Shown here: piece by piece, positions 1,508 through 54,572 of the stretch | Position numbering within the stretch: position 1 is the stretch's first letter | How the letters are laid out: each line of letters begins with the position of its first letter | Position numbers and translations under genes: made by a program | The notes under the pieces: generated by a model | The model's database searches: none | What the model was told of the DNA's origin: nothing | Seen by the model: only the letters and a program-made list of their open reading frames with translations | Assembly (NCBI GenBank): GCA_964460615.1 | Contig: CAYWPX010000002.1 | Span: 71,220-135,219, forward strand | DNA: 64,000 nucleotides | Direction: 5' to 3' | Source of the DNA: an uncultured Planctomycetia bacterium | Lineage (GTDB): Bacteria > Omnitrophota > Gorgyraeia > CAYWPX01

Positions 1508-2551
1508 TTATTTCAGCCTGTCTTTAAATTTTCCGATCGCTTCTATCAGGTCAGCCACCTCTATTACTTTGAGGCACTTAAAATCGACCGTACAATTATG
1601 CGCCAGGCAAACCTTGCAACCTGCATCTTTTTGTATAGAGATATCGTTAATCCCCGTCGGACCCCACCTTTTTGGCCCAAGCCCCGGATCAATTCTTCCG
1701 AAAATAGAGATAACAGGAGTGCCCACTGCTACGGATATATGTACCGGGCCGGAGTCATTGGATATAAAAAGCCTGCTCAATTTTAAGACCGAGGCCAACT
1801 CCATAATAGTGGTTTTACCGCTGAGATCGATGATCTTATCTTTATTTTTGGCAAATTCCATTATCTTGCCGGAGAGCTCAGCGTCGTCTTTGCCAGAAAC
1901 GACTATAACCTTAGCCTTAAAATTATCGACCAAATAATCCGCAACCCCGGCGAATCTCTCTATCGGCCATTTTTTGGATACCGAGCTCGCTCCGGGATGC
2001 AATGTGACTATTATATCCTTGTCGCCTATCCCAAGACTTTTTAGAAAAGATCTGGTTCTTGATAGGACCACATCATCTAATTTAATATAAAGGGATCTAT
2101 CGAGTGAATTTATCCCCAGCGGCTTTAACATATCCAAAACATATTGGGATTCGCTCAGGAGGCCTTTTTCTTTTTCATGGTGAATAATTTCAGTGAGGAA
2201 TATTTTGCCTTTTCTGTCATACCCGATACGCCTTGGTATGCCGGCTAAAAATGCTATTAGATGTGTCCTCATGGTGGGGTGCAGGCAAATAGCAATATCA
2301 AATTTAATTTTTTTTAAACTAAATGCGAATTTTAATGTTGATAGAAAATTTTTATGGGTACCGTTTTTGTCATAGACTATGACTTCATCCAAATAAGGAT
2401 TATTCTTTACCAGATCCGCCGCATGCGGTCCTACCATAAAAGCTAAGTAACCGGAGGGAAACTTCTCTCTCAATGCTTTTATAGCCGGCGTCGAAAGCAT
2501 TACATCGCCGATCCTGTCAAGCCTTATAAGTAGTATACGTTTTGGGTCCAT
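1508..2551 (-). CDS. glycosyltransferase family 9 (ADP-heptose:LPS heptosyltransferase family)
   Basis: N-terminus KRILLIRLDRIGDVMLSTPAIKALREKFP is the GT9 signature, and the C-terminal half is GT9-like. It ends with a Cys motif CKVCLAHNCTVDFKC. Confidence 0.85.
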   Translation of the reverse strand: MDPKRILLIRLDRIGDVMLSTPAIKALREKFPSGYLAFMVGPHAADLVKNNPYLDEVIVYDKNGTHKNFLSTLKFAFSLKKIKFDIAICLHPTMRTHLIAFLAGIPRRIGYDRKGKIFLTEIIHHEKEKGLLSESQYVLDMLKPLGINSLDRSLYIKLDDVVLSRTRSFLKSLGIGDKDIIVTLHPGASSVSKKWPIERFAGVADYLVDNFKAKVIVVSGKDDAELSGKIMEFAKNKDKIIDLSGKTTIMELASVLKLSRLFISNDSGPVHISVAVGTPVISIFGRIDPGLGPKRWGPTGINDISIQKDAGCKVCLAHNCTVDFKCLKVIEVADLIEAIGKFKDRLK

Positions 2552-2600
2552 AGTTTTTTTTAATTAAAATCTTATAAGCTCATGGCTCATGGGTCATAGC

Positions 2601-3593
2601 TCATGGAGTTTTGTTGTTACTATGAGCTATTAGCAATCTCTTCGCTGCTTCAAAAACCTCATCCGGCGTTATAAGCCTCATGCATTCATGATTATAACGG
2701 CACTGGGCCTCTTCGCAAGGTGAGCAGATAAGATCTTTCTGGATCACTACGCTATGCTCGGCAAGAGGGCCGTATTTTTTGGGATCTGTGGGGCCGAATA
2801 TTGCAATTGTCTTTGTATTGGTGGCTGAACCTATATGCAAGGGCGCGCTATCATTTGTAACTAAAAGTTTTGCTCTTTTTATGAGAGCCGTTAATTGCCT
2901 GAGCGTCGTTCTTCCGGCAAGATTGATTATCTTATAATTGCTGATATGAGCGATATCCTGAATAAATGTATTGTCACTGGCGTCCCCTACCATAATAACT
3001 ATAGACTTAAACTCTTCCATAAGCCTGTCATTCAGAACTGCAAATCCTTCCTTGGACCAGCGCTTAATATGACTTTTTGACCCGGGGCTTATAATAACAA
3101 TATTGTTGTCCGCTCCCATTTTTTTAAGAAAGCTATCTACAAACGCTTCGTCATCTTTTGAAGTATATAAAGTAAAATTGGCATTTTTTATGTCAATACC
3201 GAGATTATGCAATTTCCAGAGGTGGATATCTTTTTTATGGCGTATCCTTTCGGGAGCTTTATGTATGGGGCTTGTATAAATCTTCGAGCCTAACAATATG
3301 GGAAAAAGCGTATTCCTCAGATCTATCACCAGGTCATACTTTATTTTTCTCAGTTTTGCAACTAAACGCCTCTTCTGCATCATAGGAGTGGTCTTATCAT
3401 AAATAATTAATTTAAAAATTGCCGGGTTATCTTTAAATAACTCTTTACCGTTCGGGCCTACCATTATATCTACACGTGCTTCCGGAAAATTATTTTTAAG
3501 CGCACACAATACCGGAGTAGTGAGAACTATATCACCGATATTACTAAGTGTTATAAGAAGAATTCTTTTAATTTTAGTTTTATCTAATTCCAT
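2601..3593 (-). CDS. glycosyltransferase family 9 (heptosyltransferase family) paralog
   Basis: KRILLITLSNIGDIVLTTPVLCALKNNFP. C-terminal motif CSPCEEAQCRYNHECM. Confidence 0.85.
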   Translation of the reverse strand: MELDKTKIKRILLITLSNIGDIVLTTPVLCALKNNFPEARVDIMVGPNGKELFKDNPAIFKLIIYDKTTPMMQKRRLVAKLRKIKYDLVIDLRNTLFPILLGSKIYTSPIHKAPERIRHKKDIHLWKLHNLGIDIKNANFTLYTSKDDEAFVDSFLKKMGADNNIVIISPGSKSHIKRWSKEGFAVLNDRLMEEFKSIVIMVGDASDNTFIQDIAHISNYKIINLAGRTTLRQLTALIKRAKLLVTNDSAPLHIGSATNTKTIAIFGPTDPKKYGPLAEHSVVIQKDLICSPCEEAQCRYNHECMRLITPDEVFEAAKRLLIAHSNNKTP

Positions 3594-3596
3594 GTT

Positions 3597-4640
3597 TTAA
3601 ATCCCTGAAAGAAATTTATTCTCATCTATCTTTTTTATAACATCCTCTACGGTTATAGCTTTCATGCATTTGAAATCATCACAGCTAAAATTATAGCACG
3701 GCACTTCACAGCCGATATCCGAGCTGATAACTACCGTATTCTCTTTGCCATATGGCCCGGTAAGATCGGGTTTTGTCGGGCCAAAAAGCGCTACGGTATT
3801 CACCTTCAGGCTATTTGCTATATGCATTGGCCCTGAATCATTTGCTATAACAAGGCTCGACATTTTTAATATTGCTCCTAACTGCTTGAGATTTGTGGCT
3901 CCGGCAAGAATTACCGGTTCTGATCTCATCATGGATTCAATGTCATTAGCTAACTCAATATCTTTTCTGGCGCCGGTTATAACGATCTTTACTCCATATT
4001 TTTCAACTAATCTGTCCGAAAGTTTTGCGAAATTTTCCCGTGGCCATCTTTTGGGATCCCAATTCCCTCCCGGGTTGATAACTACAAGGGTATCTTCCTC
4101 TTTTATACCTTTTCTTCTTAAAAGGTTTTTTGCGAATTCAGCGTCATTCTTTGATATATAAAATTCATATCCCAGCCCTTTTACATCAGCACCTAAAAAA
4201 CCGGCGATCTTAAGAAAATAATCGACCTTATGGGCTGCCTCGAGAGGGGGCTCGATGATTTCAGTCAGGAACGCATTTCCCTTTATACTAGCATAGCCGA
4301 TCCTGTTTTTTATTCCCGACAAAACTGCTATAAGCCGTCTTGTAATAGAGCGATGGAGGAATATTGCCGTATCAAACTTCAAAGACCTGATCTCATTTAT
4401 CAGCTTAAGTTTTCCGAATAAGGATCTGTGTATGCCTTTTTCGTCATATATTATAAGTTTATCTACCGAAGGGTTGAGATCCAACACCTCTTTGGTCCTT
4501 GGCGCAATAAGACATGCTATGTACGCCTTGGGATAGAGATTCCTTATGGCACGGATAAATGGCGTAGAAAAAATGACATCCCCTATCCAATTGACTTCCA
4601 CAATAAGAATTCTTTTTGGGTTAATACCGGCTTTTGTCAT
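3597..4640 (-). CDS. glycosyltransferase family 9 (heptosyltransferase family) paralog
   Basis: KRILIVEVNWIGDVIFSTPFIRAIRNLYP. C-terminal motif CEVPCYNFSCDDFKCM. The ORF-track N-terminal extension to 4790 overlaps the upstream deacetylase gene, so I take the start as the internal Met (MTKAGINPKRILIV). Confidence 0.75.
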   Translation of the reverse strand: MTKAGINPKRILIVEVNWIGDVIFSTPFIRAIRNLYPKAYIACLIAPRTKEVLDLNPSVDKLIIYDEKGIHRSLFGKLKLINEIRSLKFDTAIFLHRSITRRLIAVLSGIKNRIGYASIKGNAFLTEIIEPPLEAAHKVDYFLKIAGFLGADVKGLGYEFYISKNDAEFAKNLLRRKGIKEEDTLVVINPGGNWDPKRWPRENFAKLSDRLVEKYGVKIVITGARKDIELANDIESMMRSEPVILAGATNLKQLGAILKMSSLVIANDSGPMHIANSLKVNTVALFGPTKPDLTGPYGKENTVVISSDIGCEVPCYNFSCDDFKCMKAITVEDVIKKIDENKFLSGI

Positions 4641-5451
4641 GCGAATTTTCCGTATCCCCTCGTCTGAAATTCCTGAATTTTTTCTTAATATCTTTGACGA
4701 ATGTATAGTAACCGCTGATCTCAAACCAAAAAACAATGGGGTTATCGCAATTCCTGGTAATCTTGATCCTCGGCATAGCGTAAACGTCATTTCTCTTATA
4801 TTTAAACGGAGGATTGGTGCTTACCGCTCCCATATATCCTGAATCTTCGACGATTTTTTTGACCTCATCATTCATTCTGCCCAAAGGATAGCAGAACATG
4901 TTAACCTTTGACCCGCTATTGGCCTCGATGACACTTTTTGAACCGGCTATCTCGTCGGATAAGACCGATACGTCTTTTATCATATCCAAAAACGGGTGGC
5001 TTTTGGTATGGCTGCCGAACTGGATCCTGTCTTTTGACATACGGCGGATCTCGTCCCAAGTAAGATAATTATCTTTGCCAATATAATCGGTAATAATAAA
5101 GATCGTTGCCGGGATATCATATTTTTTTAGTATGGGATAGGCATTTTTATAATTATCTTCATATCCATCGTCAAATGTAACAGCCACGACCTTGTCCGGC
5201 ATCTCTAAATTGCTTTTAATGCGCGAAATCAATTCATCAAGCGGTATAACCGAATATTCGTTATCGCGCAGGAATTTCATATGCTTTTCAAAACTCTCGG
5301 AAGAGACGAGAAGATTATCATCCCCCGGATATTCGGCTATCTGGTGATACATCATCACAGGAGGTACGTAGATGCTCCTCAGAGCAGTGCCGATGACAGC
5401 ATAAATTGCTATAACAATTACTATTATCGTAAATAATCTTTTTAATTTCAT
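4621..5451 (-). CDS. polysaccharide deacetylase (CE4/NodB domain), membrane-anchored
   Basis: N-terminal TM helix, then VAVTFDDGYEDNY...ATIFIITDYIG...HTKSHPFL, which are NodB-homology motifs. Confidence 0.8.
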   Translation of the reverse strand: MKLKRLFTIIVIVIAIYAVIGTALRSIYVPPVMMYHQIAEYPGDDNLLVSSESFEKHMKFLRDNEYSVIPLDELISRIKSNLEMPDKVVAVTFDDGYEDNYKNAYPILKKYDIPATIFIITDYIGKDNYLTWDEIRRMSKDRIQFGSHTKSHPFLDMIKDVSVLSDEIAGSKSVIEANSGSKVNMFCYPLGRMNDEVKKIVEDSGYMGAVSTNPPFKYKRNDVYAMPRIKITRNCDNPIVFWFEISGYYTFVKDIKKKFRNFRRGDTENSHDKSRY

Positions 5452-6548
5452 ATCTCTTTTATGGTGTTTTTGTAAAAAAGTTCTATTTTCTGCGCCATTA
5501 CCGTTAAGGAAAAATTAACCTTAGCAAATTCTCCCGCTTTTTGCCTGATAGCGTCAGAAAGATTTTTGTCTTTTAGTAATTTTACTAAAATTGCCTTAAT
5601 GCCCGGCTCATCCCCTGCTTCAAAAAAAAGTCCCGTTTTGTTTTCCTCGATAATATCCTTTAGGCCTCCGGTCCTTGAAGCTGCAACAGGCACACGGCTG
5701 GCCATTGCTTCAATAGCCGCCAGGCCCAAACCCTCTTTAAGGGACGGTATGACAAATACATCGAACATCGAAAGAGCTTCCCTCGTATCCTTAAGAAGCC
5801 CGAGAAAATGCACATTTTTCTTAAGGCCATTTGACTCAACAAAGCTAACCAATTCTTCCTTAAGCCTGCCCTCGCCCACTAAGACCAAAGAAGCATTCGG
5901 AAAATCCGCTAATAAACTCTTAAAAGCCCTTAAAAGATGCATCTGCCCCTTCTCTTCGGTGAAACGTCCTATCGATCCGATAACGGGGCTGCCTGTAACG
6001 TTAAACTTAGTCTTATAATCTATCTTATTTGCCCCGGCAAAATCCCGGAATCTATCTACGTCAATGCCTGTATATATCGTCTCAATGGAGCTTGGTTTTA
6101 GGCTGAATTTATCTATAAGGTCTTTTTTTACGGAATCACTGATAGCTATCGTTTTATCTCCAAAAAATTTGAACAATACTCTCCCGGCCCGTTTCTTGAA
6201 AAAACCGTGCGCAGTTGTCACATACGGAATCTTCGCGATCCTACTTGCAAAAAAAGCCGCAACCTGAGTCACTCTGGTGTTGGCATGCACTATTTCAATA
6301 TTATTCTCTTTGATTATTTTTAAGAGGCCGAATATAGACGCAAATGTCCTCGGGCTTAGCTCCGATTTTGTATTTATATCAAGCTTGATGTGACTTATCC
6401 CGGCTTCTTTTAGCTCGCACTCTAATTCTCCGCCGTAACTCGCCACTATTACAAGATTACCCCTGTTTTTAAGCATCCCGGCGAGATTTACCACATACCT
6501 CGCTATCCCGCCCGTATTTAAATGAGTTGTTGCAAAAAGTATGTTCAT
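5448..6548 (-). CDS. glycosyltransferase family 4 (GT-B, RfaG-like)
   Basis: TGGIARYVVNLA at the N-terminus and EGLGLAAIEAMASRVPVAASRTGGLKDII (E-X7-E region) typical of GT4. Confidence 0.85.
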   Translation of the reverse strand: MNILFATTHLNTGGIARYVVNLAGMLKNRGNLVIVASYGGELECELKEAGISHIKLDINTKSELSPRTFASIFGLLKIIKENNIEIVHANTRVTQVAAFFASRIAKIPYVTTAHGFFKKRAGRVLFKFFGDKTIAISDSVKKDLIDKFSLKPSSIETIYTGIDVDRFRDFAGANKIDYKTKFNVTGSPVIGSIGRFTEEKGQMHLLRAFKSLLADFPNASLVLVGEGRLKEELVSFVESNGLKKNVHFLGLLKDTREALSMFDVFVIPSLKEGLGLAAIEAMASRVPVAASRTGGLKDIIEENKTGLFFEAGDEPGIKAILVKLLKDKNLSDAIRQKAGEFAKVNFSLTVMAQKIELFYKNTIKEI

Positions 6549-6554
6549 TTAGTT

Positions 6555-8711
6555 TCAGGAATTAAAAATTGCCTGTCCGGATTCATCATTTGAGAAATTC
6601 TGGTTACGATTTTCCCGTTTTTTATTTAAATCGGTATCTATATACTCTGAAACAGCTTTCATGACCTCTTCGACTTTGATATCTTTCATACATTTATTAT
6701 TCTTGAGGCACCCGGGCTTATAACACGGGGAACAATTTATGCCGCTTCTTATGATTTTTACATTACCGGGCGCATGTCTTTTGGGATCAGTAGGCCCGAA
6801 AAGCGCCACACAAGGCACGTTCAGGCTTGAAGCCACATGCATAGGAGCGCTGTCGCTTGTGACCAGAACGCTCATTTTATTTATCAAGGCTATCAGGTCC
6901 CTCAAATCTGTTTTACCCGCTGCAATAATGGGTTTACTCTGGGTCTTGGAAGCGATCTCCTTGGCAAGGTCAATATCAAGTTTGGATCCTATTATCACAA
7001 CCCTTGTATTATATTTTTTTGCTATCTCATCACAAAATTTGGCAAAGTATTCAGCCGGCCATCTTTTGGTCTGCCATTTTGCACTGGACCCCGGGTTGAT
7101 ACCTACAAGGCATTTTTGAGTATTGAACCAGTTCTCTTTCAGGAATTTATCAGCCCATTGGTCCTGCACCTTGCCCGGCCAAAGCTCTAAACCTGGGTCT
7201 TCAAGCTTGATCCCTAACATCGATAATACCCTGAACTGATGCTCTATAGGGCCGATATCCGGAATATTATTTTTTATCTTGTTATTCAACAGGAATGACC
7301 ACTTCTTATTATCATAGCCGAATCTTTTGGGCGCAAGACTTAAGAGAGCCAACAAATGGCTCGTCCGGTTATTCTGAAGATCTATAACAATATCAAAACA
7401 ATTTTTCCTTAAATAGCTTCCGATCTTAAGTATATCCTTTATCCCTTTTTTCTCAGGATCAAATATTATCTCATCATCTATATAAGTGCATCCGGCAAGA
7501 ACCTGCCTTGACTGAAGCCCTACAAGGACTTTTATAACGGCATTAGGAAATTTTTTTCTTATAGCCCGAAGGCTGGGAACTGACAATATAACGTCCCCGA
7601 TAGCGCTTATCTTTATTACCATAATATTAAGGCTTTCGAGGGCCTCTTCATACACCTTTAGAGTGCTTTCAAGCATCTTCTTGACGCTGAAGTTATCTTC
7701 TACATTCTTCCGTCCGTTTATAGCAAGTTGTTGCGCAAGATTTTTGTCTTTTGCTATCTTCAGTATTGCTTCTGACATTCCTTTCGGGTCATTAGGGAAG
7801 CATAATAATCCGTTGATATTATTTTTAATCACATCAAGGACCCCGCCGACCCTCGTCGCAACTACAGGCACCCCTGAGGCCTGGGCCTCAATAATGGTCC
7901 TTCCGAACGCTTCGGGAGTTGTTGTGGCAGAAACAAGGACATCCATCTTAGAAAGAACCTCGGGTATATTTTCCTGAAATCCCATAAACTCTACGATAGG
8001 TTGTAACCCAAGTCTTCTTATAAGTAACTCCAGCTCCTCTTTGTATTTCAATTTATCTTTTGACGCGTCCCCCACAATCAATACCTTAAGTTTCGGAATT
8101 GCCCTTGATACCAAAGCCGCCGCCTTAATAAAATCCGTGTGCCCCTTAAGCGGCGTTATCCGCGCTATTATACCCATTGTAAATTCATTTTTATTTTTAT
8201 CTCCGGGCGAGGAAAATCTGAACTTATCAAGATCAACCCCTCTATGGATGATCCTAATCCTGTTATAAGGGACTCCGAAATCCTCTATCATATGCTTAGC
8301 AATGGGATTTGATATGGCTATGACAAATTTTCCCCATCCCATTACGTAACTAAATATATTTTTGGAATAATACCCATGCGCTGAGGTTATAAATTTCACA
8401 TTGGTAATGCGTGAAGCAAAAAATGCCGCTATTGCGGGTACCCTGCTTCTGGCGTGCACAATATCGATCCTCTCGTCTTTAATTATTTTAACGAGCTCCC
8501 GGACCATCCTGATAACAGTAAGCGGGGATTTTTTATACACGGGAAGAGTATAGTGTCTGATCCCTGAGCGATCTAAGTGGCTTGTAAGCGGCCCACCGCC
8601 TGAGACTACGATAGATTTATGTTTATTTTCGGCCAAAAATCTGGCCACATCTATAGTCCCGCGCTCAACACCGCCGTATTCCAGCTTTGGTAATATTTGA
8701 AGTATATTCAT
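6555..8711 (-). CDS. fusion protein: N-terminal GT4 glycosyltransferase plus C-terminal GT9 heptosyltransferase-family domain
   Basis: Residues 1-360 are GT4-like (YGGVERGTIDVARFL...EAFGRTIIEAQASGVPVVATRVGGVLDVI). Residues about 365-718 are GT9-like (IMVIKISAIGDVILSVPSLRAIRKKFP...). The protein ends with the same Cys motif CSPCYKPGCLKNNKCM. Confidence 0.8.
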   Translation of the reverse strand: MNILQILPKLEYGGVERGTIDVARFLAENKHKSIVVSGGGPLTSHLDRSGIRHYTLPVYKKSPLTVIRMVRELVKIIKDERIDIVHARSRVPAIAAFFASRITNVKFITSAHGYYSKNIFSYVMGWGKFVIAISNPIAKHMIEDFGVPYNRIRIIHRGVDLDKFRFSSPGDKNKNEFTMGIIARITPLKGHTDFIKAAALVSRAIPKLKVLIVGDASKDKLKYKEELELLIRRLGLQPIVEFMGFQENIPEVLSKMDVLVSATTTPEAFGRTIIEAQASGVPVVATRVGGVLDVIKNNINGLLCFPNDPKGMSEAILKIAKDKNLAQQLAINGRKNVEDNFSVKKMLESTLKVYEEALESLNIMVIKISAIGDVILSVPSLRAIRKKFPNAVIKVLVGLQSRQVLAGCTYIDDEIIFDPEKKGIKDILKIGSYLRKNCFDIVIDLQNNRTSHLLALLSLAPKRFGYDNKKWSFLLNNKIKNNIPDIGPIEHQFRVLSMLGIKLEDPGLELWPGKVQDQWADKFLKENWFNTQKCLVGINPGSSAKWQTKRWPAEYFAKFCDEIAKKYNTRVVIIGSKLDIDLAKEIASKTQSKPIIAAGKTDLRDLIALINKMSVLVTSDSAPMHVASSLNVPCVALFGPTDPKRHAPGNVKIIRSGINCSPCYKPGCLKNNKCMKDIKVEEVMKAVSEYIDTDLNKKRENRNQNFSNDESGQAIFNS

Positions 8712-8792: not shown

Positions 8793-10736
8793 TTACACAA
8801 ACCTCTCAACAGCCTTTAAGACCTTTACGTTATCATCCAAAGGCTTGAGGGTTATGATCTGCTTCAATAATTTGTCAGAAAATTCCGCTATTTTTTCAGG
8901 GCCGGTAAAAACTATGTTGCCCTCCGAACTAAGATCTTTAAGCATGGATAAATGCTTCGAGCCCGACTTTATTACTAACGGCTCGAAGACCAGGACCTTT
9001 TTCCCGCTTGATATGGCTTCAGAGACCATAGAGCTTGAATCGCCGGATACAACTATAATATCAGAAATGCCCATTATGCCGGAAAGCGCAAAATCATAAT
9101 TTTTTTCATTGGCTATGACCAAAAATTTGCAGTACTTATTACCGGTAAGCCTCTTTTTGATAGTGTCTTCCACTTCCTTAGAAGTCCTGCGCGATGTAGT
9201 CAGAAGTATCCGGGCGGAATTTTTTTCACAGAAATCCGTGACCTCATCCAATACCTTGTTGATAATTTCATTATTGATCACAAAGCTGTCGTTTGAACCG
9301 CCGATAATGACCCCCACATTGATAGAGTCCCCCGGTTGTACCAATTGAAGAATCTTATTTTTAGACTCCTCCAAAAGATCCTTTGAAATAAGATTTGTAG
9401 TACCTTTGGTAACGACAACTCTATGCGATTCTTTTACTAAGTCATGTTTTGGTATGATAAGGAGATTAAAATGCGACCTTGCCATGAATCCGGGATCCAT
9501 AGAAGCAATATTCCTGGCGTTATTATCGGATTTTGCAAATATATTTACAGGGACCATCGACGAACCTGTAGAAATAATTATATCGCCGTATGTATTGACC
9601 AAATTTTTGTAAGAATCCGCCGTTAAAGCAAATTTTAATGCGACTCTGGGAATTTTATAGAATAAGGCCATAGAAAGACAAATAAACATATTTTTTCTTA
9701 AATTATTTTTAAATTTTATATCCAACTCTTTCACCGGAGTGTCAGATACTTTATAACCTTTTTCAAACCTCAGCTTCATAATCTTTTCGGCAATGGACCT
9801 GGACTGATTGAGGTGTCCCTGCTTTCCATCGCTTAAAATTATAATAGTTTTAAGCGGGGTGGATTTCCATCTTTTATGCACCCAGAGCCACTGGTCGGGA
9901 AATCTCCTGATATATGACTCCAGGATATTTGAGTATTTGGTTAAATTTACAGACTCGTCTGCAAATTTTTTGCCGGTATTTGTGATTTCAAGGGGCTCTT
10001 CGATATATATTGTATGCTTTGGCCCCTTCTCTCTGACAATAAATGTCGGCAATATTACAGCACCCGTTGATTCTGCCAGGTTCACAACCCCGGCTGCAAA
10101 AGAAGTAGGCCTTCCGAAAAAATCAACAAATACTCCGCGCCTCCCGGCATCCTGGTCGGATAAAACCCCTATCAGCTTATTCTCCCTTAAATCCTTGAAT
10201 ATCTCTCTGGTAGCCATACCTTTTTTTACTACTTTGCAACCTTTTATCTGGCGATAGAAGTTTAATAATCCGTTTAAGGCCTTCATCTTCTGCTCTCGCG
10301 CTAGCACTGACAGAGGATAGCCTATAATGGCGCTAGTAATACTGGTTATCTCCCAGTTACCAAAATGAGCCGTTAAAAATATAACGCCTTTTTTTTTGGA
10401 AAGTGCCTTATCTATGCGATCCATATTTTTTACTTCTATATATTCGCTTACATACCTTTTATTAACTCTGGGCAGAGTAAAGACCTCCACTATCACTTGG
10501 CCGAAGTTCTGATACATCTTTTTTATCAGGCTATCAATTTCTTCCGGAGATCTTTCGCCTTTGAACGCCGCCTTCATATTGGCATAGGCAACACGCTTTC
10601 TTTTGATATTCAGGTAATATGCAAGCGTCCCGAAACATCTGCCGATAAATAACCCTGCTCTGACAGGAATTAATAAAAATACCAGGCTAAATATTAGCGC
10701 TATAAATGAGAGAATCAAGTCTGCTAAGTAAAGCAT
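8793..10736 (-). CDS. lpxL: fusion: lipid A late acyltransferase (LpxL/HtrB family) N-terminal domain plus ELM1-family (PF06258-like) C-terminal domain
   Basis: N-terminal TM, then LTAHFGNWEI (HxGNWE motif of LpxL/LpxM), ...FPDQWLWVHKRWK. The C-terminal approx. 340 aa contain GVIIGGSND, LLTTSRRTSKE and VVSGDSSSMVSEA, reminiscent of ELM1-family proteins. Confidence 0.7.
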   Translation of the reverse strand: MLYLADLILSFIALIFSLVFLLIPVRAGLFIGRCFGTLAYYLNIKRKRVAYANMKAAFKGERSPEEIDSLIKKMYQNFGQVIVEVFTLPRVNKRYVSEYIEVKNMDRIDKALSKKKGVIFLTAHFGNWEITSITSAIIGYPLSVLAREQKMKALNGLLNFYRQIKGCKVVKKGMATREIFKDLRENKLIGVLSDQDAGRRGVFVDFFGRPTSFAAGVVNLAESTGAVILPTFIVREKGPKHTIYIEEPLEITNTGKKFADESVNLTKYSNILESYIRRFPDQWLWVHKRWKSTPLKTIIILSDGKQGHLNQSRSIAEKIMKLRFEKGYKVSDTPVKELDIKFKNNLRKNMFICLSMALFYKIPRVALKFALTADSYKNLVNTYGDIIISTGSSMVPVNIFAKSDNNARNIASMDPGFMARSHFNLLIIPKHDLVKESHRVVVTKGTTNLISKDLLEESKNKILQLVQPGDSINVGVIIGGSNDSFVINNEIINKVLDEVTDFCEKNSARILLTTSRRTSKEVEDTIKKRLTGNKYCKFLVIANEKNYDFALSGIMGISDIIVVSGDSSSMVSEAISSGKKVLVFEPLVIKSGSKHLSMLKDLSSEGNIVFTGPEKIAEFSDKLLKQIITLKPLDDNVKVLKAVERFV

Positions 10737-11730
10737 CTTTCCCTTCTTTAATCTCTATATTTATTTTCAGCACAAAAATCTTAATATTCATGCTGTCAAT
10801 ATTATTAAGCTTCTTTATCTTGACAAAATCTTTTTGCGTTGTCAGGACCGCCGCATTATTAATTTTTGCTGATACAAGAATCTGCTTAAGATCCTTATCA
10901 GAATAGTTATGATGATCCATGAATCTAATATCATCTTTTATCACCCCGCCTGACTTTTCAACCATCAATCTGAAATATTCGGGGTTTGCTATTCCGGAGA
11001 CAAGGATGAAATCTTTGCCCTTCAGAAACTCATCTTTCAGTTCTACCCCCATAGAAGGGTCCAGAATAGACTCTATTTTATAATAAGATTCCGCAAATAT
11101 CGCTTTATCGTTAATTTCCTTTATATCCCTCTTAAGCGCCTCCGGATCGGCTTTAGGAAAATCGCACTTAGTGAAAACTATTATATCGGCTCTTTTAAGA
11201 GAATCTTTAGGCTCTCTTAGAACGCCTCTGGGAAATAAAAAGCTGTTTCCAAAAGAATTGAGCGCGTCTATTAGTACTATGTCCAGATCCCTTTTAAGCT
11301 TCCAGTGCTGGAAACCGTCATCCAAAAGTATTAGTTCAGCTATTTTAGCTTCACTGATAAGTTTGGCATTTTGGGACTTATTAGGGCCTATAAATACAGG
11401 GAGCCCTGTTTCCTCCTGAAGAATGAATTTTTCATCTTCTCCGTACCCCCTCGTAATTATTGCGCCTCTTCTATTTTGCCTTTTTATAAGATCGGCAAGA
11501 TATATGGTAAAAGGAGTCTTACCGGTACCTCCAAGAGTAATGTTCCCTATGCTTATAACAATTGCATCGGCTTTAAAAGCCTTTAATATGCCTATTCTAT
11601 AGCCAAACTTGATAAGATTTAAAAAAAAACCATAAAAAACCGAGATAACTCTTAAAATCAATCTGACAAAAAAAGAAAAAACTCCTTTTTTCTGATCCTG
11701 CATTACAGAATATAAATATTCTACTATCAT
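10687..11730 (-). CDS. lpxK: tetraacyldisaccharide 4'-kinase
   Basis: VISIGNITLGGTGKTPFTIYLADLIK Walker A and LpxK-like length and architecture. It sits between waaA and lpxL. Confidence 0.85.
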   Translation of the reverse strand: MIVEYLYSVMQDQKKGVFSFFVRLILRVISVFYGFFLNLIKFGYRIGILKAFKADAIVISIGNITLGGTGKTPFTIYLADLIKRQNRRGAIITRGYGEDEKFILQEETGLPVFIGPNKSQNAKLISEAKIAELILLDDGFQHWKLKRDLDIVLIDALNSFGNSFLFPRGVLREPKDSLKRADIIVFTKCDFPKADPEALKRDIKEINDKAIFAESYYKIESILDPSMGVELKDEFLKGKDFILVSGIANPEYFRLMVEKSGGVIKDDIRFMDHHNYSDKDLKQILVSAKINNAAVLTTQKDFVKIKKLNNIDSMNIKIFVLKINIEIKEGKDALLSRLDSLIYSANI

Positions 11731-11765: not shown

Positions 11766-13061
11766 TTAAATCCTTATATTCTTATCATTCAAAAGGATCT
11801 TAATTTTAAAAATTGCATTATTACTGGCGCCGATATTCTCATCGATCAGGCTTCTGGCGCGCCTTCCGAGAGCCAGGCGCTCTTTTTCCATATTAAGCAA
11901 TCTTAAGCTGGCCAGGTAAAGATTATTTTCATCATCAACTACAATACTGGCGCTATTTTTTAGAAATAGCTCCGTAATATCCCTGAAATTAAAAACATGC
12001 CTTCCGAAAATAATCGGCTTTCCGTAAAATGCCGGTTCCAGGATATTGTGACCGCCGTGTTTAACCAGGCTTCCCCCGACAAAAGCAATGGTACTAAAAG
12101 CATACATGTCTTTAAGCACGCCTATCTTATCGATAATCAGAACGTCAAAATTGTCGGTATTTTTTAATTCCGAAAACAATTTTGTTTTCAGCTTGAAATT
12201 TTTCTCAAAAATATTTTTTATCTCAGTACACCTGTCGACATGCCTTGGAGCTATGAAAAGCACCAGATCTTTAAAATCGCCCTTCAATTTTAAAAATACT
12301 CTTGCGGCCATCTCCTCTTCGCCGTGATGCGTAGATCCGGCGATGAAAATATTTTTATACTTATCAAAATCAACCGATCCTTTATATTTGTCTTTTATTT
12401 TATCAATATCTTTTTCCAATTTTAGCGCAGAATCAAATTTAATATTACCGACCTTAAATGCGCTTTCAGGCCTGGCTCCAAGCGCCTCTACTCTGTTATA
12501 ATCAACTTCTGTCTGCATACAAAATAGATCGACTCTTTCAAACGTACCTTTAAGTATCGGCTTTAAAAATAGATACCCATTAAAAGATCTGTCCGAAATC
12601 CTCCCGTTTATAAGCGCCATGGGAATATTTCTTTTGGATAAAGTTCTTATCATGTTGGGCCATATCTCGGTATCTACGGTTATAAATAGCCTTGGGTTTA
12701 TCTTTGAAACTGCTTTTTCGGTTATAGAACTTATGTCAAAAGGAAAATATATCACTACTTCATTTTTTCTGGCCAATTTTTTGGCTACCTCTTTGCCGGT
12801 TTGCGTTACGTTTGATATAACAATTGCGGCCTCAGGAAATTCACGCCTTAAATTTTCTAAAAACGCTTCCGCTGCCGCAGTTTCTCCGACGCTAACGGCA
12901 TGAAGCCAGATAACATTTTTATCTTTGAGCATTTTTAGCTTATCATCGCTATATTCACCCAGGCGTTCTTTGAATTCACTGTCAAATTTTCGTTTTATGA
13001 TATATCCCGGAAGAAAAACCACTATCAAAAATATAAAAACAATGTTAAATAATATGTACAT
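11766..13061 (-). CDS. waaA: 3-deoxy-D-manno-octulosonic acid (Kdo) transferase
   Basis: N-terminal TM and VIWLHAVSVGETAAAEAFLENLRREFP, typical of KdtA/WaaA. 431 aa. Confidence 0.85.
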   Translation of the reverse strand: MYILFNIVFIFLIVVFLPGYIIKRKFDSEFKERLGEYSDDKLKMLKDKNVIWLHAVSVGETAAAEAFLENLRREFPEAAIVISNVTQTGKEVAKKLARKNEVVIYFPFDISSITEKAVSKINPRLFITVDTEIWPNMIRTLSKRNIPMALINGRISDRSFNGYLFLKPILKGTFERVDLFCMQTEVDYNRVEALGARPESAFKVGNIKFDSALKLEKDIDKIKDKYKGSVDFDKYKNIFIAGSTHHGEEEMAARVFLKLKGDFKDLVLFIAPRHVDRCTEIKNIFEKNFKLKTKLFSELKNTDNFDVLIIDKIGVLKDMYAFSTIAFVGGSLVKHGGHNILEPAFYGKPIIFGRHVFNFRDITELFLKNSASIVVDDENNLYLASLRLLNMEKERLALGRRARSLIDENIGASNNAIFKIKILLNDKNIRI

Positions 13062-13206: not shown

Positions 13207-14169
13207 CTATGCTCGTGGATGCGTCTTGTCATACACGGCTTTGAGGCCATCCATAGTAACATGAGTATAAATCTGAGTTGTTGATAGATTAAGATGCCCC
13301 AATAACTCCTGCACACTTCTGAGATCAGCCCCTCTATTGAGTAGATGCGTAGCGAATGAGTGCCTTAGGCTATGAGGCGATATCCCCTGCCTGAAACTTA
13401 AGGCCTTTATATATTTATCAAGGATCCTTCTAACTGACCTATCTGTCAGCCTTTTGCCATATTTATTCAGAAAAACAGCTGAGTTTTTTTCACCTGACAG
13501 CTTTGCTCGTTTTGAAAAATATCCCCTGATTGATTTAAGGGCCCTGTCCCCGATAGGGCTTAACCTTTCTCTTTTACCTTTGCCTCTCACCTTAAGCACG
13601 CCGCTTATAAAGTCAATGTCATTCTGATTTAAACCTACTAATTCACTTACTCTTATACCGGTAGAGTAAAGCGTCTCCAGGATCGCTTTATCTCTCAATG
13701 AGGCCTCATCATGCCTCTTAAAACGCTTTGTTGTTTGCTCCGAAGGAGCATCCGAAGGAGCATCCGAAGGAGCATCCGAAGGAGCATCCGAAGGAGCATC
13801 CAACGGGGCATCCAATAATTTTGCGATCTCTTCTTCGCTTAAAAAAACCGGCAGTTTTTTATCAAGTTTTGGAGTTGAGATCGATAAAGCCGGGTTTGAC
13901 TTCACGTGTTCTTCCCGGAAAAGGAATTTAAAAAACGACCTGATGCATGAAAGGCGCCTGGCAATTGTGCGTTTGGATAAATTTTTTGTCTTAAGGTAAG
14001 CAAGATATCTTCTAAGGACCAGATAGTCCGCTTCTTCTATGGTGATCTTCAGATCTAAAATAAATTTGTCAAAATCCTTCAGATCATCAGCATAATTGGT
14101 GATAGTATGATTTGAGGCATTCTTTTCGACTCTCAGATATAATAGATATTTATCTACAAGCCTATCCAT
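13207..14169 (-). CDS. xerC: tyrosine site-specific recombinase XerC/XerD family, with an internal (DAPS)n repeat linker
   Basis: Catalytic region HSLRHSFATHLLNRGADLRSVQELLGHLNLSTTQIYTHV. The N-terminal core-binding domain and the catalytic domain are joined by LDAPLDAPSDAPSDAPSDAPSDAPSE. Confidence 0.85.
   Translation of the reverse strand: MDRLVDKYLLYLRVEKNASNHTITNYADDLKDFDKFILDLKITIEEADYLVLRRYLAYLKTKNLSKRTIARRLSCIRSFFKFLFREEHVKSNPALSISTPKLDKKLPVFLSEEEIAKLLDAPLDAPSDAPSDAPSDAPSDAPSEQTTKRFKRHDEASLRDKAILETLYSTGIRVSELVGLNQNDIDFISGVLKVRGKGKRERLSPIGDRALKSIRGYFSKRAKLSGEKNSAVFLNKYGKRLTDRSVRRILDKYIKALSFRQGISPHSLRHSFATHLLNRGADLRSVQELLGHLNLSTTQIYTHVTMDGLKAVYDKTHPRA
13738..13813 (-). repeat. in-frame 12-bp tandem repeat (gaaggagcatcc x5 plus a variant) encoding (DAPS)n inside xerC
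   Basis: The plus strand reads ctccgaaggagcatccgaaggagcatcc... with five near-perfect 12-mers. Confidence 0.8.
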
Positions 14170-35355: not shown

Positions 35356-36735
35356 TTACCCAACCACTCCGAGCTGCCTGAACCTGAAATTTACTTTTAA
35401 TTCGTCTTTGGCTATCGATTCGCATCTTTTAACGTCTACTCCCGGTAGATCTAAGCACGTAGCTTCAACCTCAATACCGGCATCGCGGCAATCACGGATA
35501 AATTTTTTGACCGCTTCATAGGTTTCATCGCCAAATGCAGGAAAGCAGAACTTATTATAAAGCTCCTTTGTATCAGCGTTAAGGCTTACAGATGCCCTGT
35601 CAATCAATCCTGCCAGGTCCTTCACAATATTTTTCTTATTTATAAGGTCTCCCTGCCCGTTTGTCACTAGCCTTATTTTAGAACCTGATTTTTTTAAAGA
35701 CTCGGCGATCTCTATAAGGACATCGAGCCTGGTAGTCGGCTCGCCATAACCGCAAAAAACAATTTCTTTATATTTGCCGGGATTTTTAATGCTACTAAGG
35801 ACATCTTCGGCGCTAGGCTCATTATCAAGCCACAGGCTGTGGCCTTTGACGAACTTTGAGGTATTCCTTATGCAAAAATCGCAGTTATTTGTGCATTGGT
35901 TTGTAATATTCAAATACAGTGAATCGCGTATCTCATAAGAGTAGACATTTTCACTCTCTTTTATCCCGAGGCTGAACAACTGATTTGCATTATGGGTTGT
36001 GATCCTTGCAATATCGGATTCGCTTAATTTTTTTAATTCCGCCAGAAGCTTTATTAGGCTTATTAGGTTGGCAGGCTCATTCCTCTTCCCCCTCAAATTC
36101 TCGGGGGCAAGGTACGGCGCATCCGTCTCAAGGCACATCTTTTCAATCGGAACAAGCTTAGAAAGATCTCTAAGGTTCTGGGCCTTTTTATACGTTACAT
36201 TCGAGGTGAACGATATGTATAACCCAAGCTCAAGGCACTCTTTCAGGGACTGCTCATCTCCTGAAAAGCAGTGCATAACGCCCTTGATGGGCAGTGATTT
36301 ATATTTTTTTAATATCTCCAGAGTATCGCCGAAGGCTTCCCTTGAGTGAATTACGATCGGAAGGTCATATTTATTCGATAGTTCCAGCTGTTTAATAAAG
36401 ATCTCGATCTGCTTATCCTTAGGAGAGAGATTTCTGTAATAATCTAATCCTATCTCCCCTATCGCAACGACCTTTTTATTATTCTTTATCAGCCACTCTA
36501 AAGTATCATAATCCTCGCTTTTCACATCTTTTGCTTCATGAGGATGAATGCCGACCGTCGCAAAAATAAACTCATATTCATTAGCTAGTGCGCATGAACG
36601 CTTGCTTCCTTCAACAGAACTTCCTACATTAATAATATATTCCACCCCGGAAGACTTCGCCTTATTAATAGCTTCGGGCCTGTCGTGATCAAAATCCTTG
36701 AAATCAAGGTGGCAATGGGTATCTACAATAATCAT
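35356..36735 (-). CDS. tatD: fusion: TatD-family metal-dependent hydrolase (N-terminal) plus radical SAM domain (C-terminal)
   Basis: MIIVDTHCHLDF...IGEIGLDYY...PIVIHSREA...ETDAPYL is TatD. The C-terminal approx. 200 aa carry CTNNCDFC (Cx3Cx2C). Confidence 0.75.
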   Translation of the reverse strand: MIIVDTHCHLDFKDFDHDRPEAINKAKSSGVEYIINVGSSVEGSKRSCALANEYEFIFATVGIHPHEAKDVKSEDYDTLEWLIKNNKKVVAIGEIGLDYYRNLSPKDKQIEIFIKQLELSNKYDLPIVIHSREAFGDTLEILKKYKSLPIKGVMHCFSGDEQSLKECLELGLYISFTSNVTYKKAQNLRDLSKLVPIEKMCLETDAPYLAPENLRGKRNEPANLISLIKLLAELKKLSESDIARITTHNANQLFSLGIKESENVYSYEIRDSLYLNITNQCTNNCDFCIRNTSKFVKGHSLWLDNEPSAEDVLSSIKNPGKYKEIVFCGYGEPTTRLDVLIEIAESLKKSGSKIRLVTNGQGDLINKKNIVKDLAGLIDRASVSLNADTKELYNKFCFPAFGDETYEAVKKFIRDCRDAGIEVEATCLDLPGVDVKRCESIAKDELKVNFRFRQLGVVG

Positions 36736-49149: not shown

Positions 49150-50958
49150 TTAAAATTTAACCTTATGTTCCATGCCGATAAACTCTTCATTCTGGCCCTT
49201 CAGCTTCATTATCAGATTATCCTCTGATTTCACCTTATATTTAAACTCAACTTCGCTTCTTTTGGTCTCAGGGTTTTCATTATCATTATCCCGCCTGGTC
49301 CAGGTTTTAAGATTGATGTCAAAATCCTTGCCTACCTGTTTTGATAGGCTTACCTCGTCCTTTTCATTACGCTTTGCGATGTCCCAGCCGTCAAAAACAA
49401 TCGTGTTGTTATCAGTTGTCACCTGCAGGTTTTCCAAAAAACTGCTTTTCCCGATCTTGTTTGTATCTAAAAACCCGCTCAAAAGCAGATAGCCATTTTT
49501 TACTTTTATCCTTGAGTCCTCTATCTTAAGTATCGAATCTCTCCCGGTGAGGCTGGTGGTCATTTTTTCAAAATCAACATTCCCTATTGTACCACTATTC
49601 ACCTCGATCCGGCCTTTTGAGATATTCTCCTTTAAGTTGCCCTTGATTTCAAATTTGGCATTAAGGATCCCCGTAATACCCGCTCTTTCAGATGCCGGGA
49701 AAAGTTGCAAAAATTTTACAAGGTCCAGCTTATTTATTGAAAATGCCAGTTGCCCATTATAGGGTTTTTTATTATCAATAAACCCTGAGAAGCTGAACTC
49801 ATCTGTCAGATCAAGATTTTTAACTTCAAATCTGTCTTTATTGATAATAGCCTCTCCGGTCAATTTTCCATAAGGCTTATAATTTACAATGAGCTCATCG
49901 GATGCTAATTTTATCGAAATATCACGCTCGATATTCGAAGAACAAAAAACCCTGGTTACAAAATCAAAATTCCCTACTTTGCAGTGGTCAATCCTGGCAT
50001 CATAAAAAACTTCGGGGAATCCTGAGAAATCAACCGCTAAATCAATGTCACCTTCAAACAATTTAATATCAAAATTAGAAACAAGCTCTTTTAGGTCAAA
50101 TTGGCCGCTTAATAACCGCTTACTATCAATGTCAACGTTATATATATTTAAAAACTGATTATCAATGAAATATTCAACATCAAATTTTGTCAAAAGATCG
50201 TTGAATATCACGGTATTCCCGCTTACCAATATCGACCTGGTATCTCCTGCAATATCAATAAAACCGTTAAAATCATTATTCTTTATAAGCCCTGACATTG
50301 TAAGCTCCGGGCCAAAAAAAACATTTCTGATCCTGCCGCTTAATATCGTCTCTGTATCAAAAAATCTGCCTTTGACCTTATCTAGGATTATATCCTTATT
50401 ATCAAAGATTATATTCCCGTTCAAATTATTCAGGACGTATTTCCCTTCGGAGTTTAAAATAGCTCCGTCCGAAACAAATATGCCAAGCGGCTTATGCCAA
50501 AGTATATATTCAGGAAATTTAGTTAAAAATATTTTTGCCAGATCAAGTTTATCAAAATTTTGCTTATAAAAACTATCTTGAAGATCCTTCACTAAATACA
50601 GCCTTGGCCCATCAATCTCGATATGGCTCAGGACATCATAATTCTTCAAAAATATATCCCAGATCTTATAATTAAATGTAAGGGTTTTTATCTCAAGGAT
50701 ATTTTCCAGCTTATTATTGGATACCTTTGAAACCCTGATATCTCTTATCCCGATGTCCCGGGCAAATCCGCCTTCAATATCGCCGATCTTTACTATAAGA
50801 CCTGTATTTTTTGAAACTACCGTTTCAATAGTAATAAGAAAATTGCTTATCAGCGTATCTTTTTTTGCGTCAAAATATAGAAAAGCTTGCGCTAACAAAA
50901 CTACCAGTAGCATTGTAAGCAAAATAAGCCTTCTATTTTTGCCATGCCGGTTACGCAT
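49150..50958 (-). CDS. large membrane-anchored beta-rich protein, possibly AsmA/TamB-like
   Basis: N-terminal signal-anchor (LILLTMLLVVLLAQAF), then an approx. 570-aa repetitive segment with alternating hydrophobic residues. No catalytic motif recognised. Sits next to the Mla genes. Confidence 0.4.
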   Translation of the reverse strand: MRNRHGKNRRLILLTMLLVVLLAQAFLYFDAKKDTLISNFLITIETVVSKNTGLIVKIGDIEGGFARDIGIRDIRVSKVSNNKLENILEIKTLTFNYKIWDIFLKNYDVLSHIEIDGPRLYLVKDLQDSFYKQNFDKLDLAKIFLTKFPEYILWHKPLGIFVSDGAILNSEGKYVLNNLNGNIIFDNKDIILDKVKGRFFDTETILSGRIRNVFFGPELTMSGLIKNNDFNGFIDIAGDTRSILVSGNTVIFNDLLTKFDVEYFIDNQFLNIYNVDIDSKRLLSGQFDLKELVSNFDIKLFEGDIDLAVDFSGFPEVFYDARIDHCKVGNFDFVTRVFCSSNIERDISIKLASDELIVNYKPYGKLTGEAIINKDRFEVKNLDLTDEFSFSGFIDNKKPYNGQLAFSINKLDLVKFLQLFPASERAGITGILNAKFEIKGNLKENISKGRIEVNSGTIGNVDFEKMTTSLTGRDSILKIEDSRIKVKNGYLLLSGFLDTNKIGKSSFLENLQVTTDNNTIVFDGWDIAKRNEKDEVSLSKQVGKDFDINLKTWTRRDNDNENPETKRSEVEFKYKVKSEDNLIMKLKGQNEEFIGMEHKVKF

Positions 50959-53419: not shown

Positions 53420-53514
53420 TTATTGCCTCCGTGTAATTCAGATGACAGAAGTCAGAAAACAGAAATCAGATTTTTTTCTGTCTTCTGACCTCTTTTTTCT
53501 ATTTTCTTTCTTTA
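53420..53514 (-). promoter_or_regulatory. 5' spacer of clpC carrying a CAGAA-phase heptamer array and hairpin (gtcagaaaacag...ctgtcttctgac), related in words to the ilvC-leuA spacer
   Basis: cagatga|cagaagt|cagaaaa|cagaaat|cagattt then ttttctgtcttctgac. It shares gatgacagaag with 22294-22408. Confidence 0.45.
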
Positions 53515-54561
53515 TTATTTCAATTTTTCTCTTATTAGATCAGATCTTTTAACATCCCTCTCTACAGAGGATAATATCTTTCCTTCCAATTTCTGCAGAT
53601 GAGCAGGCTGAGAAAGTATTAAAATCTCATTTATCATTTTAAGGTCGATATTTTTCGTAAGCTCCATATCAACCCCCAATTTCACATCCGATAACAATCT
53701 TACGGCCTCTTCGCTCGTTATGATCCTGGCGCTTTTTAAAGTGCCATACGCACGAAAGATCCTATCAGAGATAAGTTCCCGGCTTTTTGTAAAAAGTATA
53801 TCCCTTGCACTTTTTTCCCTGACGATTATCTGTTTCACTATCTTTTCAAGATTATCTATTACATCGCTTTCAGGCCTTCCCAAGGTTGACTGGTTCGACA
53901 TCTGAAAAAAGTTACCGACTGCTTCGGTCCCTTCGCCATAAAACCCTCTTACTGCAAAATTTAATTTTGCGAGAGCCTGGAAGATCTTTCCTATCTGATT
54001 AGTCATCACCAGAGCCGGCAGATGCATCATTACTGATGCTCTCATACCGGTACCGGTATTGGTAGGACATGCCGTCAGATACCCGAACTTGGAAGAAAAA
54101 GCGATGTTTAATTGAGAAGAAATTTCTGTATCTATCTTATCGATTATCTTCATTGAGTCGGACAGATTAAGCCCTGACTGCATAGCTTGCAGCCTCAGGT
54201 GGTCCTCTTCATTTATCATCAAAGATATTGTTTCGCGGTCGTCGATTAAAAGTGCCTTGCCGTCACCTTTTACGGCATGCTCTCTGGAAATCAAATGCCG
54301 TTCTACTAAGAATATCCTGTCAAGGTCACTTAGATTATTCATGTACAAAAAAAGTGAATTTTTCGGAAAAGAAGATTTTTCTACGGCCTTCTTGACCGCA
54401 TCCAAAATCTCTTCGAGTTTCTTCTTAGAGGCCCAGTTCGGAAAAGGCAACTTGTCCAGATTGCGTGCCAGCCTGACCCTTGAAGACAGCACTATATCCA
54501 CATTAGGGCCGGTCCCCTTGAGCCATTCTCCTGTTGAATAAAGCAATTCATCCAGTTTCAT
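53515..54561 (-). CDS. mcsB: protein arginine kinase McsB (ATP:guanido phosphotransferase)
   Basis: TACPTNTGTGMRASVMMHLPAL is the phosphagen-kinase active-site signature. 348 aa. Confidence 0.85.
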   Translation of the reverse strand: MKLDELLYSTGEWLKGTGPNVDIVLSSRVRLARNLDKLPFPNWASKKKLEEILDAVKKAVEKSSFPKNSLFLYMNNLSDLDRIFLVERHLISREHAVKGDGKALLIDDRETISLMINEEDHLRLQAMQSGLNLSDSMKIIDKIDTEISSQLNIAFSSKFGYLTACPTNTGTGMRASVMMHLPALVMTNQIGKIFQALAKLNFAVRGFYGEGTEAVGNFFQMSNQSTLGRPESDVIDNLEKIVKQIIVREKSARDILFTKSRELISDRIFRAYGTLKSARIITSEEAVRLLSDVKLGVDMELTKNIDLKMINEILILSQPAHLQKLEGKILSSVERDVKRSDLIREKLK

Positions 54562-54572
54562 TATCAGATATC

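Follow-up and report, generated by a model that had tools for sequence, protein, structure and literature searches.

Fusion of a lipid A late acyltransferase with a KdoT-like glycosyltransferase domain of the ELM1/GtrOC1 family in the Omnitrophota

We examined a 64,000 nt stretch of contig CAYWPX010000002.1 (assembly GCA_964460615.1, positions 71,220 to 135,219), hereafter the window, from an uncultured bacterium labelled Planctomycetia and placed by GTDB in the Omnitrophota. On its minus strand lies an open reading frame (ORF) of 647 codons (8793..10736), with an ATG at 10736, a stop at 8793-8795 and a Shine-Dalgarno-like GAAGGG 5' of the ATG, whose product joins an LpxL-like acyltransferase to a C-terminal KdoT-like glycosyltransferase (GT) of the ELM1/GtrOC1 family with a GT-B fold. 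A Pfam search placed the lipid A late (secondary) acyltransferase family PF03279 (Lip_A_acyltrans) at residues 9-291 (9864..10712, E 3.2e-56) and PF06258 (Mito_fiss_Elm1) at residues 307-610 (E 7.3e-43, 147 bits against a cut-off of 27), which bears out the proposal of a first-pass annotation, made from the sequence alone, that an LpxL-like enzyme and an ELM1 domain are fused in one polypeptide. The gene is directly downstream of two others on the same strand, as that annotation had also stated: waaA (11766..13061, PF04413 E 5e-58, NF004388 330 bits), for a transferase of 3-deoxy-D-manno-oct-2-ulosonic acid (Kdo) of family GT30, and lpxK (10687..11730, PF02606 E 3.7e-74, TIGR00682 182 bits against a cut-off of 92), for the tetraacyldisaccharide 4'-kinase. 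The 3' end of lpxK overlaps the start of the fusion gene by 50 nt.

The membrane anchor expected in the N-terminal half corresponds to residues 1-36 (10629..10736), which hold the only 19-residue Kyte-Doolittle windows above 1.6, and helices are predicted by the structure model at residues 2-22 and 25-42. As the sole strongly hydrophobic stretch, residues 1-36 fit a single N-terminal anchor. The domain junction, HKRWKSTPLKT at residues 287-297 (9846..9878), is short. The LpxL fold ends at KRWKS and is followed by a connector of 4-5 residues; the alignment to LpxM of Acinetobacter baumannii stops at residue 292 and strand 1 of the GT-B domain starts at residue 298 (strand E298-302 in the model), giving a connector of about 5 residues. 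A full-length model of both domains reached a predicted local distance difference test score (pLDDT) of 88 and a predicted template modelling score (pTM) of 0.82, and the latter hints at a fixed arrangement of the two domains.

PF06258 takes its name from the Arabidopsis mitochondrial fission factor ELM1, an adaptor for the dynamin-related protein DRP3A without a known enzymatic role, which is uninformative for function in bacteria. A bacterial protein, GtrOC1, whose conserved gene comes first in the outer-core (OC) locus of A. baumannii beside ilvE, was listed by Kenyon and Hall in 2014 under Mito_fiss_Elm1 and as a predicted GT (PMC4172580). In 2024, deletion of the gene, A1S_2903, was reported to leave the lipooligosaccharide truncated at Kdo2-lipid A (PMC10936431). 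In December 2025, A1S_2903/GtrOC1 was renamed KdoT and the purified protein was shown to move Kdo from cytidine monophosphate-Kdo (CMP-Kdo) onto Kdo2-lipid IVA; it was inactive on lipid IVA and favoured a tetra-acylated over a hexa-acylated acceptor (PMC12856342). KdoT activity requires R180 of an invariant SRRT motif, which positions CMP-Kdo; taken singly, neither R179 nor any of the candidate bases (D8, H13, H109 and D110) is needed (PMC12856342). A homologue from Rickettsia partly complements a kdoT deletion, and the authors found homologues only in Acinetobacter and Rickettsia (PMC12856342). The description of ELM1 in the first-pass annotation as a domain of unknown function is thus outdated for bacteria.

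The C-terminal domain of the fusion protein spans residues 298-647 (8796..9845), and its likeness to KdoT was found at several levels. KdoT itself scores 203 bits against PF06258. In BLASTP the window domain and A. baumannii KdoT share 27 % identity over 291 columns (E 6e-20, 75 bits), and in hhalign a 27-sequence profile of fused homologues matches KdoT over 252 columns with a probability of 99.4 % (E 1.8e-21). For scale, KdoT and a family member from the alphaproteobacterium Tistrella share 24 % identity (58 bits), so the window domain is no more distant from KdoT than that. The AlphaFold2 model of the C-terminal domain (pLDDT 92.9) consists of two halves of alternating strands and helices, which is the two-Rossmann arrangement of a GT-B fold. 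Its top Foldseek matches are all GT-B enzymes, and the nearest solved folds all belong to users of uridine diphosphate sugars (UDP-sugars); no solved structure of an ELM1-family protein was found in the structure searches.

The KdoT sequence used in these comparisons was obtained by a tblastn search of a plasmid collection with the window C-terminal domain, which led to mislabelled A. baumannii chromosomes. The gene recovered encodes 296 aa and is the next one after ilvE; behind it come genes for a GT, a polysaccharide deacetylase and a GT2 enzyme. Its identity as KdoT is backed by this locus and by exact agreement with the published numbering (D8, H13, H109, D110 and S178-R179-R180-T181). CP040041.1 and three other records (0.56-4.1 Mb) bear the label of A. 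baumannii plasmids but are chromosomal, as the presence of ilvE and the OC locus shows; in them KdoT is annotated as 'nucleoside-diphosphate sugar epimerase' or not annotated at all.

Every previously studied KdoT residue is kept in the window domain, and the motifs SDGKxGH, PxHD, GGS, TTSRRT and DSxSMxxEA are common to both proteins. The stretches GVIIGGS, LLTTSRRTSKE and GDSSSMVSEA, singled out earlier as marks of the family, are all present. DGKQGH in an N-terminal loop of the GT-B domain (9813..9830) includes D303 and H308, the equivalents of KdoT D8 and H13, and H431-D432 (9441..9446) correspond to H109-D110; both sites are invariant in the 27 fused homologues aligned. The SRRT motif, S515-R516-R517-T518 (9183..9194), is likewise unchanged in all 27. 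R517 is the equivalent of R180, needed for KdoT activity, and R516 that of the dispensable R179. Among all relatives examined (fused, unfused and KdoT) the R180 equivalent is invariant, and the R179 equivalent is a leucine in one unfused paralogue (P0249). This pattern of one invariant and one variable arginine, as read from the alignment, matches the published KdoT mutagenesis. In SGDSSSMVSEA (9015..9047), a loop and helix of the C-terminal Rossmann half, S567, S569, M570 and E573 are invariant, KdoT included, and by analogy with other GT-B folds this segment is presumed to form the nucleotide-sugar binding site.

The possibility that the ELM1 domain is non-catalytic, and serves the acyltransferase as an adaptor, a membrane-binding module or a module that presents the substrate, has to be weighed against this conservation. 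It draws on the analogy with plant ELM1, described as an adaptor recruiting a dynamin-related protein, and on the KdoT mutagenesis, which gave no single essential catalytic base (PMC12856342). However, the fused family shows no variation in the donor-site motifs SRRT, GGS and SxSMxSEA or in DGxxGH and HD, a purified bacterial homologue, KdoT, is catalytically active (PMC12856342), and the domain persists in unfused form directly before core GT genes. We regard a non-catalytic role as very unlikely.

The N-terminal half is a full-length match to PF03279 (191 bits against a cut-off of 22.3, covering profile positions 15-294 of 295), and its top NCBIfam matches are all models of lipid A late acyltransferases. 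The motif HFGNWE reported earlier is present at residues 124-129 (10350..10367), where it aligns with HFGTWE of A. baumannii LpxM and forms an HX4E dyad, H124 and E129. These residues lie opposite H122 and E127 of LpxM, and in the mutant chain 5KNK (E127A) an alanine faces E129; hence H124 and E129 are identified as the catalytic dyad. Both are unchanged in 27 of 27 aligned homologues. Foldseek matched this half to LpxM (5KN7/5KNK, E ~5e-13, TM-score 0.68-0.69, target-normalised) and to mycobacterial PatA, and both also came up in sequence searches. With LpxL of Escherichia coli and LpxM of A. baumannii the domain has in common PF03279 over its full length, the N-terminal anchor and the HX4E dyad. 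It differs in its low identity to A. baumannii LpxM (~22 %) and in the 350-aa GT that follows directly at the acyltransferase C-terminus. The domain would be expected to carry out secondary acylation of Kdo-lipid IVA, dependent on acylated acyl carrier protein (acyl-ACP).

An artificial joining of two genes by a frameshift or assembly error, a concern raised earlier about the junction, was considered and is refuted. In a scan of GTDB species representatives, 68 loci carry the fused gene. They belong to the Omnitrophota, including Ca. Aadella and Ca. Tantalella, and to metagenome-assembled genomes loosely labelled "uncultured Planctomycetia" or "bacterium"; a further 11 outgroup loci (Acidobacteriota, Bacteroidota and others) match the LpxL half only. 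A single stop-free frame crosses the two halves in 67 of the 67 loci that contain both, and in 66 of the 67 the linker has the same length as in the window. The best 120 relatives in a collection of 5.8 billion proteins are about 647 aa long and 42-63 % identical to the window protein, and all 120 contain both Pfam domains; in total, more than 120 full-length homologues have this architecture. Their sources are assemblies from NCBI, JGI, ENA and Logan, and all those with a named organism belong to Candidatus Omnitrophota. The closest, P0002, shares 63 % identity, and the GTDB representatives are all at or below 46 %. In the 27-sequence alignment the junction HKRWKST-P...DGxxGHxNQ is invariant. 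The chance that the fusion is an artefact is therefore negligible, and we take the joining of the two domains to be ancient.

The partnership with LpxL is not unique to the ELM1 domain, which in related genomes is also fused to LpxK or free-standing. A search with the C-terminal domain returned 1,978 cluster representatives (50 % identity) at E <= 1e-3, 204 of them at E <= 1e-30, and architectures were counted on the best 149 matches, excluding the window's own protein. At least 250 residues precede the ELM1 domain in 94 of the 149; a further 22 have a partial N-terminus, 22 have the ELM1 domain at the protein N-terminus and 11 are fragments. Part of the short ELM1 proteins are cut by contig ends and others are genuine. 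In P0261, on a 479-kb contig, the unfused ELM1 gene lies directly before genes for a GT4-GT9 fusion, a GT4 and three GT9 proteins. The unfused paralogue P0249 (L082:7001-8110, from the Omnitrophota genome GCA_030698625.1) has SLRT instead of SRRT and lies in an unrelated context (radical SAM/SPASM and ResB-like genes); a 262-aa gene upstream of it was considered as a diverged LpxL and rejected.

LpxK-ELM1 fusions (PF02606 with PF06258, about 700-740 aa) account for 36 listed clusters, all from Omnitrophota where named, one of them on a 1.55-Mb contig; examples are P0139 (L086:1784-3940), P0186 (L087:3438-5543) and P0285. Two of these proteins align across the junction with 40 % identity. The LpxK-ELM1 proteins contain the same KdoT-like domain and motifs and occupy the same slot before the GT4-GT9, GT4 and GT9 genes. 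Their N-terminal partner, however, is the lipid A 4'-kinase and not an acyltransferase, no lpxL lies in the flanks, and in databases they are annotated as tetraacyldisaccharide 4'-kinase only. In a neighbour-joining tree of ELM1 domains, built without support values, most unfused forms branch near the root, and the LpxK-fused forms are split into two or more groups inside the LpxL-fused ones, a pattern that is suggestive only. Nine WaaA-LpxK fusions (PF04413 with PF02606, 757-817 aa; P0313, P0315, P0319, P0320, P0322, P0324, P0326, P0338 and P0350) were also seen in Omnitrophota. In one further protein (P0307, 879 aa) domains of the poly(A) polymerase/CCA-adding type and an HD domain are joined to LpxK.

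The gene directly downstream of the fusion in the window (6555..8711, minus strand) encodes a 718-aa fusion of GT4 to GT9 (heptosyltransferase II-like), which keeps its place after the ELM1 gene whether the latter is LpxL-fused, LpxK-fused or unfused. The GT4 half is a candidate counterpart of GnaT/LpsB in A. baumannii. The remainder of the core-oligosaccharide cluster (1508..6548, minus strand) comprises a GT4 gene (5448-6548), a polysaccharide deacetylase gene (4621-5451) and three heptosyltransferase-like GT9 genes (3597-4790, 2601-3593 and 1508-2551). The order dprA-topA-xerC-waaA-lpxK-[lpxL-ELM1]-[GT4-GT9]-GT4-(deacetylase)-GT9-GT9-GT9 is phylum-wide, being found in about 68 species-level genomes. 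The constant partners of the ELM1 domain are a core GT cluster downstream and a membrane-anchored lipid A enzyme upstream, which fits an inner-core GT acting on Kdo-lipid IVA.

The setting is in part that of KdoT, which like the window domain belongs to PF06258, has a GT-B fold and is encoded among core-oligosaccharide GTs, including GT4, together with a polysaccharide deacetylase. The two differ in that kdoT lies beside ilvE and the window gene near waaA and lpxK. KdoT is, moreover, a free-standing peripheral membrane protein of 296 aa, and the window domain does not take this free-standing form of about 300 aa; it is the C-terminal half of the 647-aa fusion, covalently linked to LpxL, and its 350 aa include an insertion of about 45 aa. 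Relative to KdoT, the insertion in the Omnitrophota domain falls at fusion residues ~340-385 (about 9580-9720). In most fused homologues it has a Cys/His-rich consensus, WRCHGxMxCMKxCL, that could bind metal; these residues are absent from the window protein and from P0002. WaaA (KdtA, GT30), encoded two genes upstream, resembles the ELM1 domain in its presumed CMP-Kdo donor, its class of lipid acceptor and its GT-B fold, and belongs to a different Pfam family (PF04413 versus PF06258). The ELM1 domain was considered as a replacement for LpxB or WaaA, and from the content of the 64-kb window this was rejected: waaA lies upstream of the fusion, and KdoT is inactive on lipid IVA. Since KdoT is unable to initiate the addition of Kdo to lipid IVA, we expect the ELM1 domain to extend the WaaA product and not to replace WaaA.

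With moderate confidence, we interpret the gene as encoding a bifunctional enzyme, anchored in the inner membrane, which places an acyl chain on Kdo-lipid IVA and attaches an additional inner-core sugar, most likely Kdo. From its resemblance to KdoT we infer CMP-Kdo as the donor and Kdo2-lipid IVA as the acceptor of the ELM1 domain. In the pathway proposed, LpxK would make lipid IVA and WaaA would then add the first Kdo residue or residues. The LpxL domain would transfer a secondary acyl chain from acyl-ACP to Kdo-lipid IVA, and the KdoT-like domain would extend the Kdo region by a further sugar, for which Kdo supplied by CMP-Kdo is the most probable candidate and R517 would position the donor. 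The GT4 and heptosyltransferase enzymes of the downstream genes would then use the extended Kdo region as their acceptor. Fusion would tether an otherwise anchorless GT to the membrane beside an enzyme that uses the same lipid substrate, and would fix a 1:1 stoichiometry. That the ELM1 domain is also fused to the membrane-anchored LpxK suggests that tethering and co-localisation matter more than a specific interplay of LpxL and GT. The earlier proposal of a common Kdo-lipid A intermediate for the ELM1 domain and LpxL finds support in the KdoT biochemistry, and since that biochemistry had already been published, the novelty of the proposal is lowered.

Several observations weigh against parts of this interpretation. 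Identity to KdoT is only 27 %, and the Omnitrophota domains form their own long-branched subfamily with the insertion of about 45 aa. PF06258 also holds the A. baumannii outer-core GTs GtrOC14, 19 and 22 (PMC4172580), which presumably use other donors, so family membership does not fix the donor sugar. WaaA may add one, two or three Kdo residues, which bears on which Kdo, if any, the ELM1 domain would add; no kdsA, kdsB or kdkA that could inform the Kdo count was found in the 64-kb window. For the LpxL-like domain, the best NCBIfam model (NF006270, lipid A lauroyl acyltransferase) scores 180 bits against an equivalog cut-off of 248, and all 17 of 17 NCBIfam models score under their equivalog cut-offs. 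Hence, the domain is a PF03279 family member without an assigned orthologue or specificity (LpxL, LpxM or LpxP). Finally, Omnitrophota fuse several neighbouring genes of this operon, and the fusion may owe more to compaction of the genome than to a coupling of functions.

The distance from KdoT, the subfamily-specific insertion and long branch, the GTs of presumably different specificity within PF06258 and the UDP-sugar users among the nearest solved folds would all suit an active inner-core GT-B enzyme with a donor other than CMP-Kdo, one that transfers a hexose, hexuronic acid, N-acetylhexosamine or heptose onto Kdo or lipid A. Against such a donor, the sole biochemically defined member of the family uses CMP-Kdo (PMC12856342) and all members of the fused family keep the SRRT arginine with which KdoT positions CMP-Kdo. 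Hexose- and heptose-type additions are already served by two GT4 and four GT9 domains in the operon, and the gene has the Kdo/lipid A genes on one side and the core GT genes on the other. We consider a different donor unlikely and retain Kdo as the sugar most probably added.

Whether the physical joining of the two activities carries mechanistic meaning is a separate matter. If fusion were a by-product of compaction in small Omnitrophota genomes, the domains would work independently, as separate LpxL and KdoT proteins do, and the enzymatic assignments made above would stand, as only the coupling is in dispute. WaaA-LpxK, LpxK-ELM1, LpxL-ELM1 and GT4-GT9 fusions arising from one operon in different lineages, unfused ELM1 genes in related genomes and the 50-nt overlap of lpxK with the fusion gene are in keeping with compaction. 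It accounts less well for a junction invariant in sequence and length between homologues that are 31-63 % identical elsewhere, for the pTM of the two-domain model, which suggests a fixed arrangement, or for the finding that all fusion partners are membrane-anchored enzymes of one pathway. A fusion without mechanistic meaning appears to us somewhat doubtful. Given the same pTM and the invariant short linker, substrate channelling between the two sites is possible. A more far-reaching model is an obligatorily coupled two-site machine that would reach the acylated inner core by a non-canonical route, in which WaaA would add the first Kdo only, the KdoT-like domain would add the Kdo recognised by LpxL (or the order would be reversed) and the lipid would be passed directly between the sites, with the LpxK-ELM1, WaaA-LpxK and GT4-GT9 fusions as remnants of a physical assembly line for the late Raetz pathway and the core. 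This we hold to be improbable, and the bifunctional, membrane-tethered enzyme described above remains our preferred interpretation.

Some features of the window outside the lipid A and core genes were also recorded. All 55 of 55 tiling ORFs of at least 110 aa in the window (1-64000) are on the minus strand, and GC skew is negative in every 2-kb bin. In a tyrosine recombinase of the XerC/XerD type (13207-14169, minus strand), a tandem peptide repeat (DAPLDAPSDAPSDAPSDAPSDAPSE) stands between the SAM-like and the catalytic domain. A full TatD_DNase domain (residues 4-255) and a Radical_SAM domain (276-441) occur together in one 459-aa ORF (35356-36735, minus strand). At 51002-55061 (minus strand) lies a quality-control trio of Gram-positive style, comprising a UVR-domain protein (McsA-like), an ATP:guanido phosphotransferase (McsB-like) and ClpC. 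Two minus-strand ORFs, 235-1179 (314 aa) and 49150-50958 (602 aa), have no Pfam match at E <= 1e-3.

Both domain families of the fusion protein were already known, and NCBI names the proteins "ELM1/GtrOC1 family putative glycosyltransferase". Full-text literature searches found no description of LpxL-ELM1 or LpxK-ELM1 fusions or of lipid A biosynthesis in Omnitrophota. What is new is the occurrence of LpxL-ELM1, LpxK-ELM1 and unfused variants before the same core GT genes, together with the WaaA-LpxK and GT4-GT9 fusions in the operon. Under the current annotations ("mitochondrial fission ELM1 family protein", "KDO2-lipid IV(A) lauroyltransferase" and "tetraacyldisaccharide 4'-kinase"), one activity of each such two-domain protein goes unnoticed. 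The known chemistry of lipopolysaccharide synthesis is unchanged by this locus. It extends putative close functional analogues of KdoT, a second type of Kdo transferase recognised in 2024-25, to an uncultured phylum of the Planctomycetes-Verrucomicrobia-Chlamydiae (PVC) group. The fusions to LpxL and LpxK are independent genomic evidence, of the Rosetta-stone kind, that the family works on intermediates derived from lipid IVA, and they provide a natural single-polypeptide system for studying in what order Kdo extension and secondary acylation take place and whether they are coupled.

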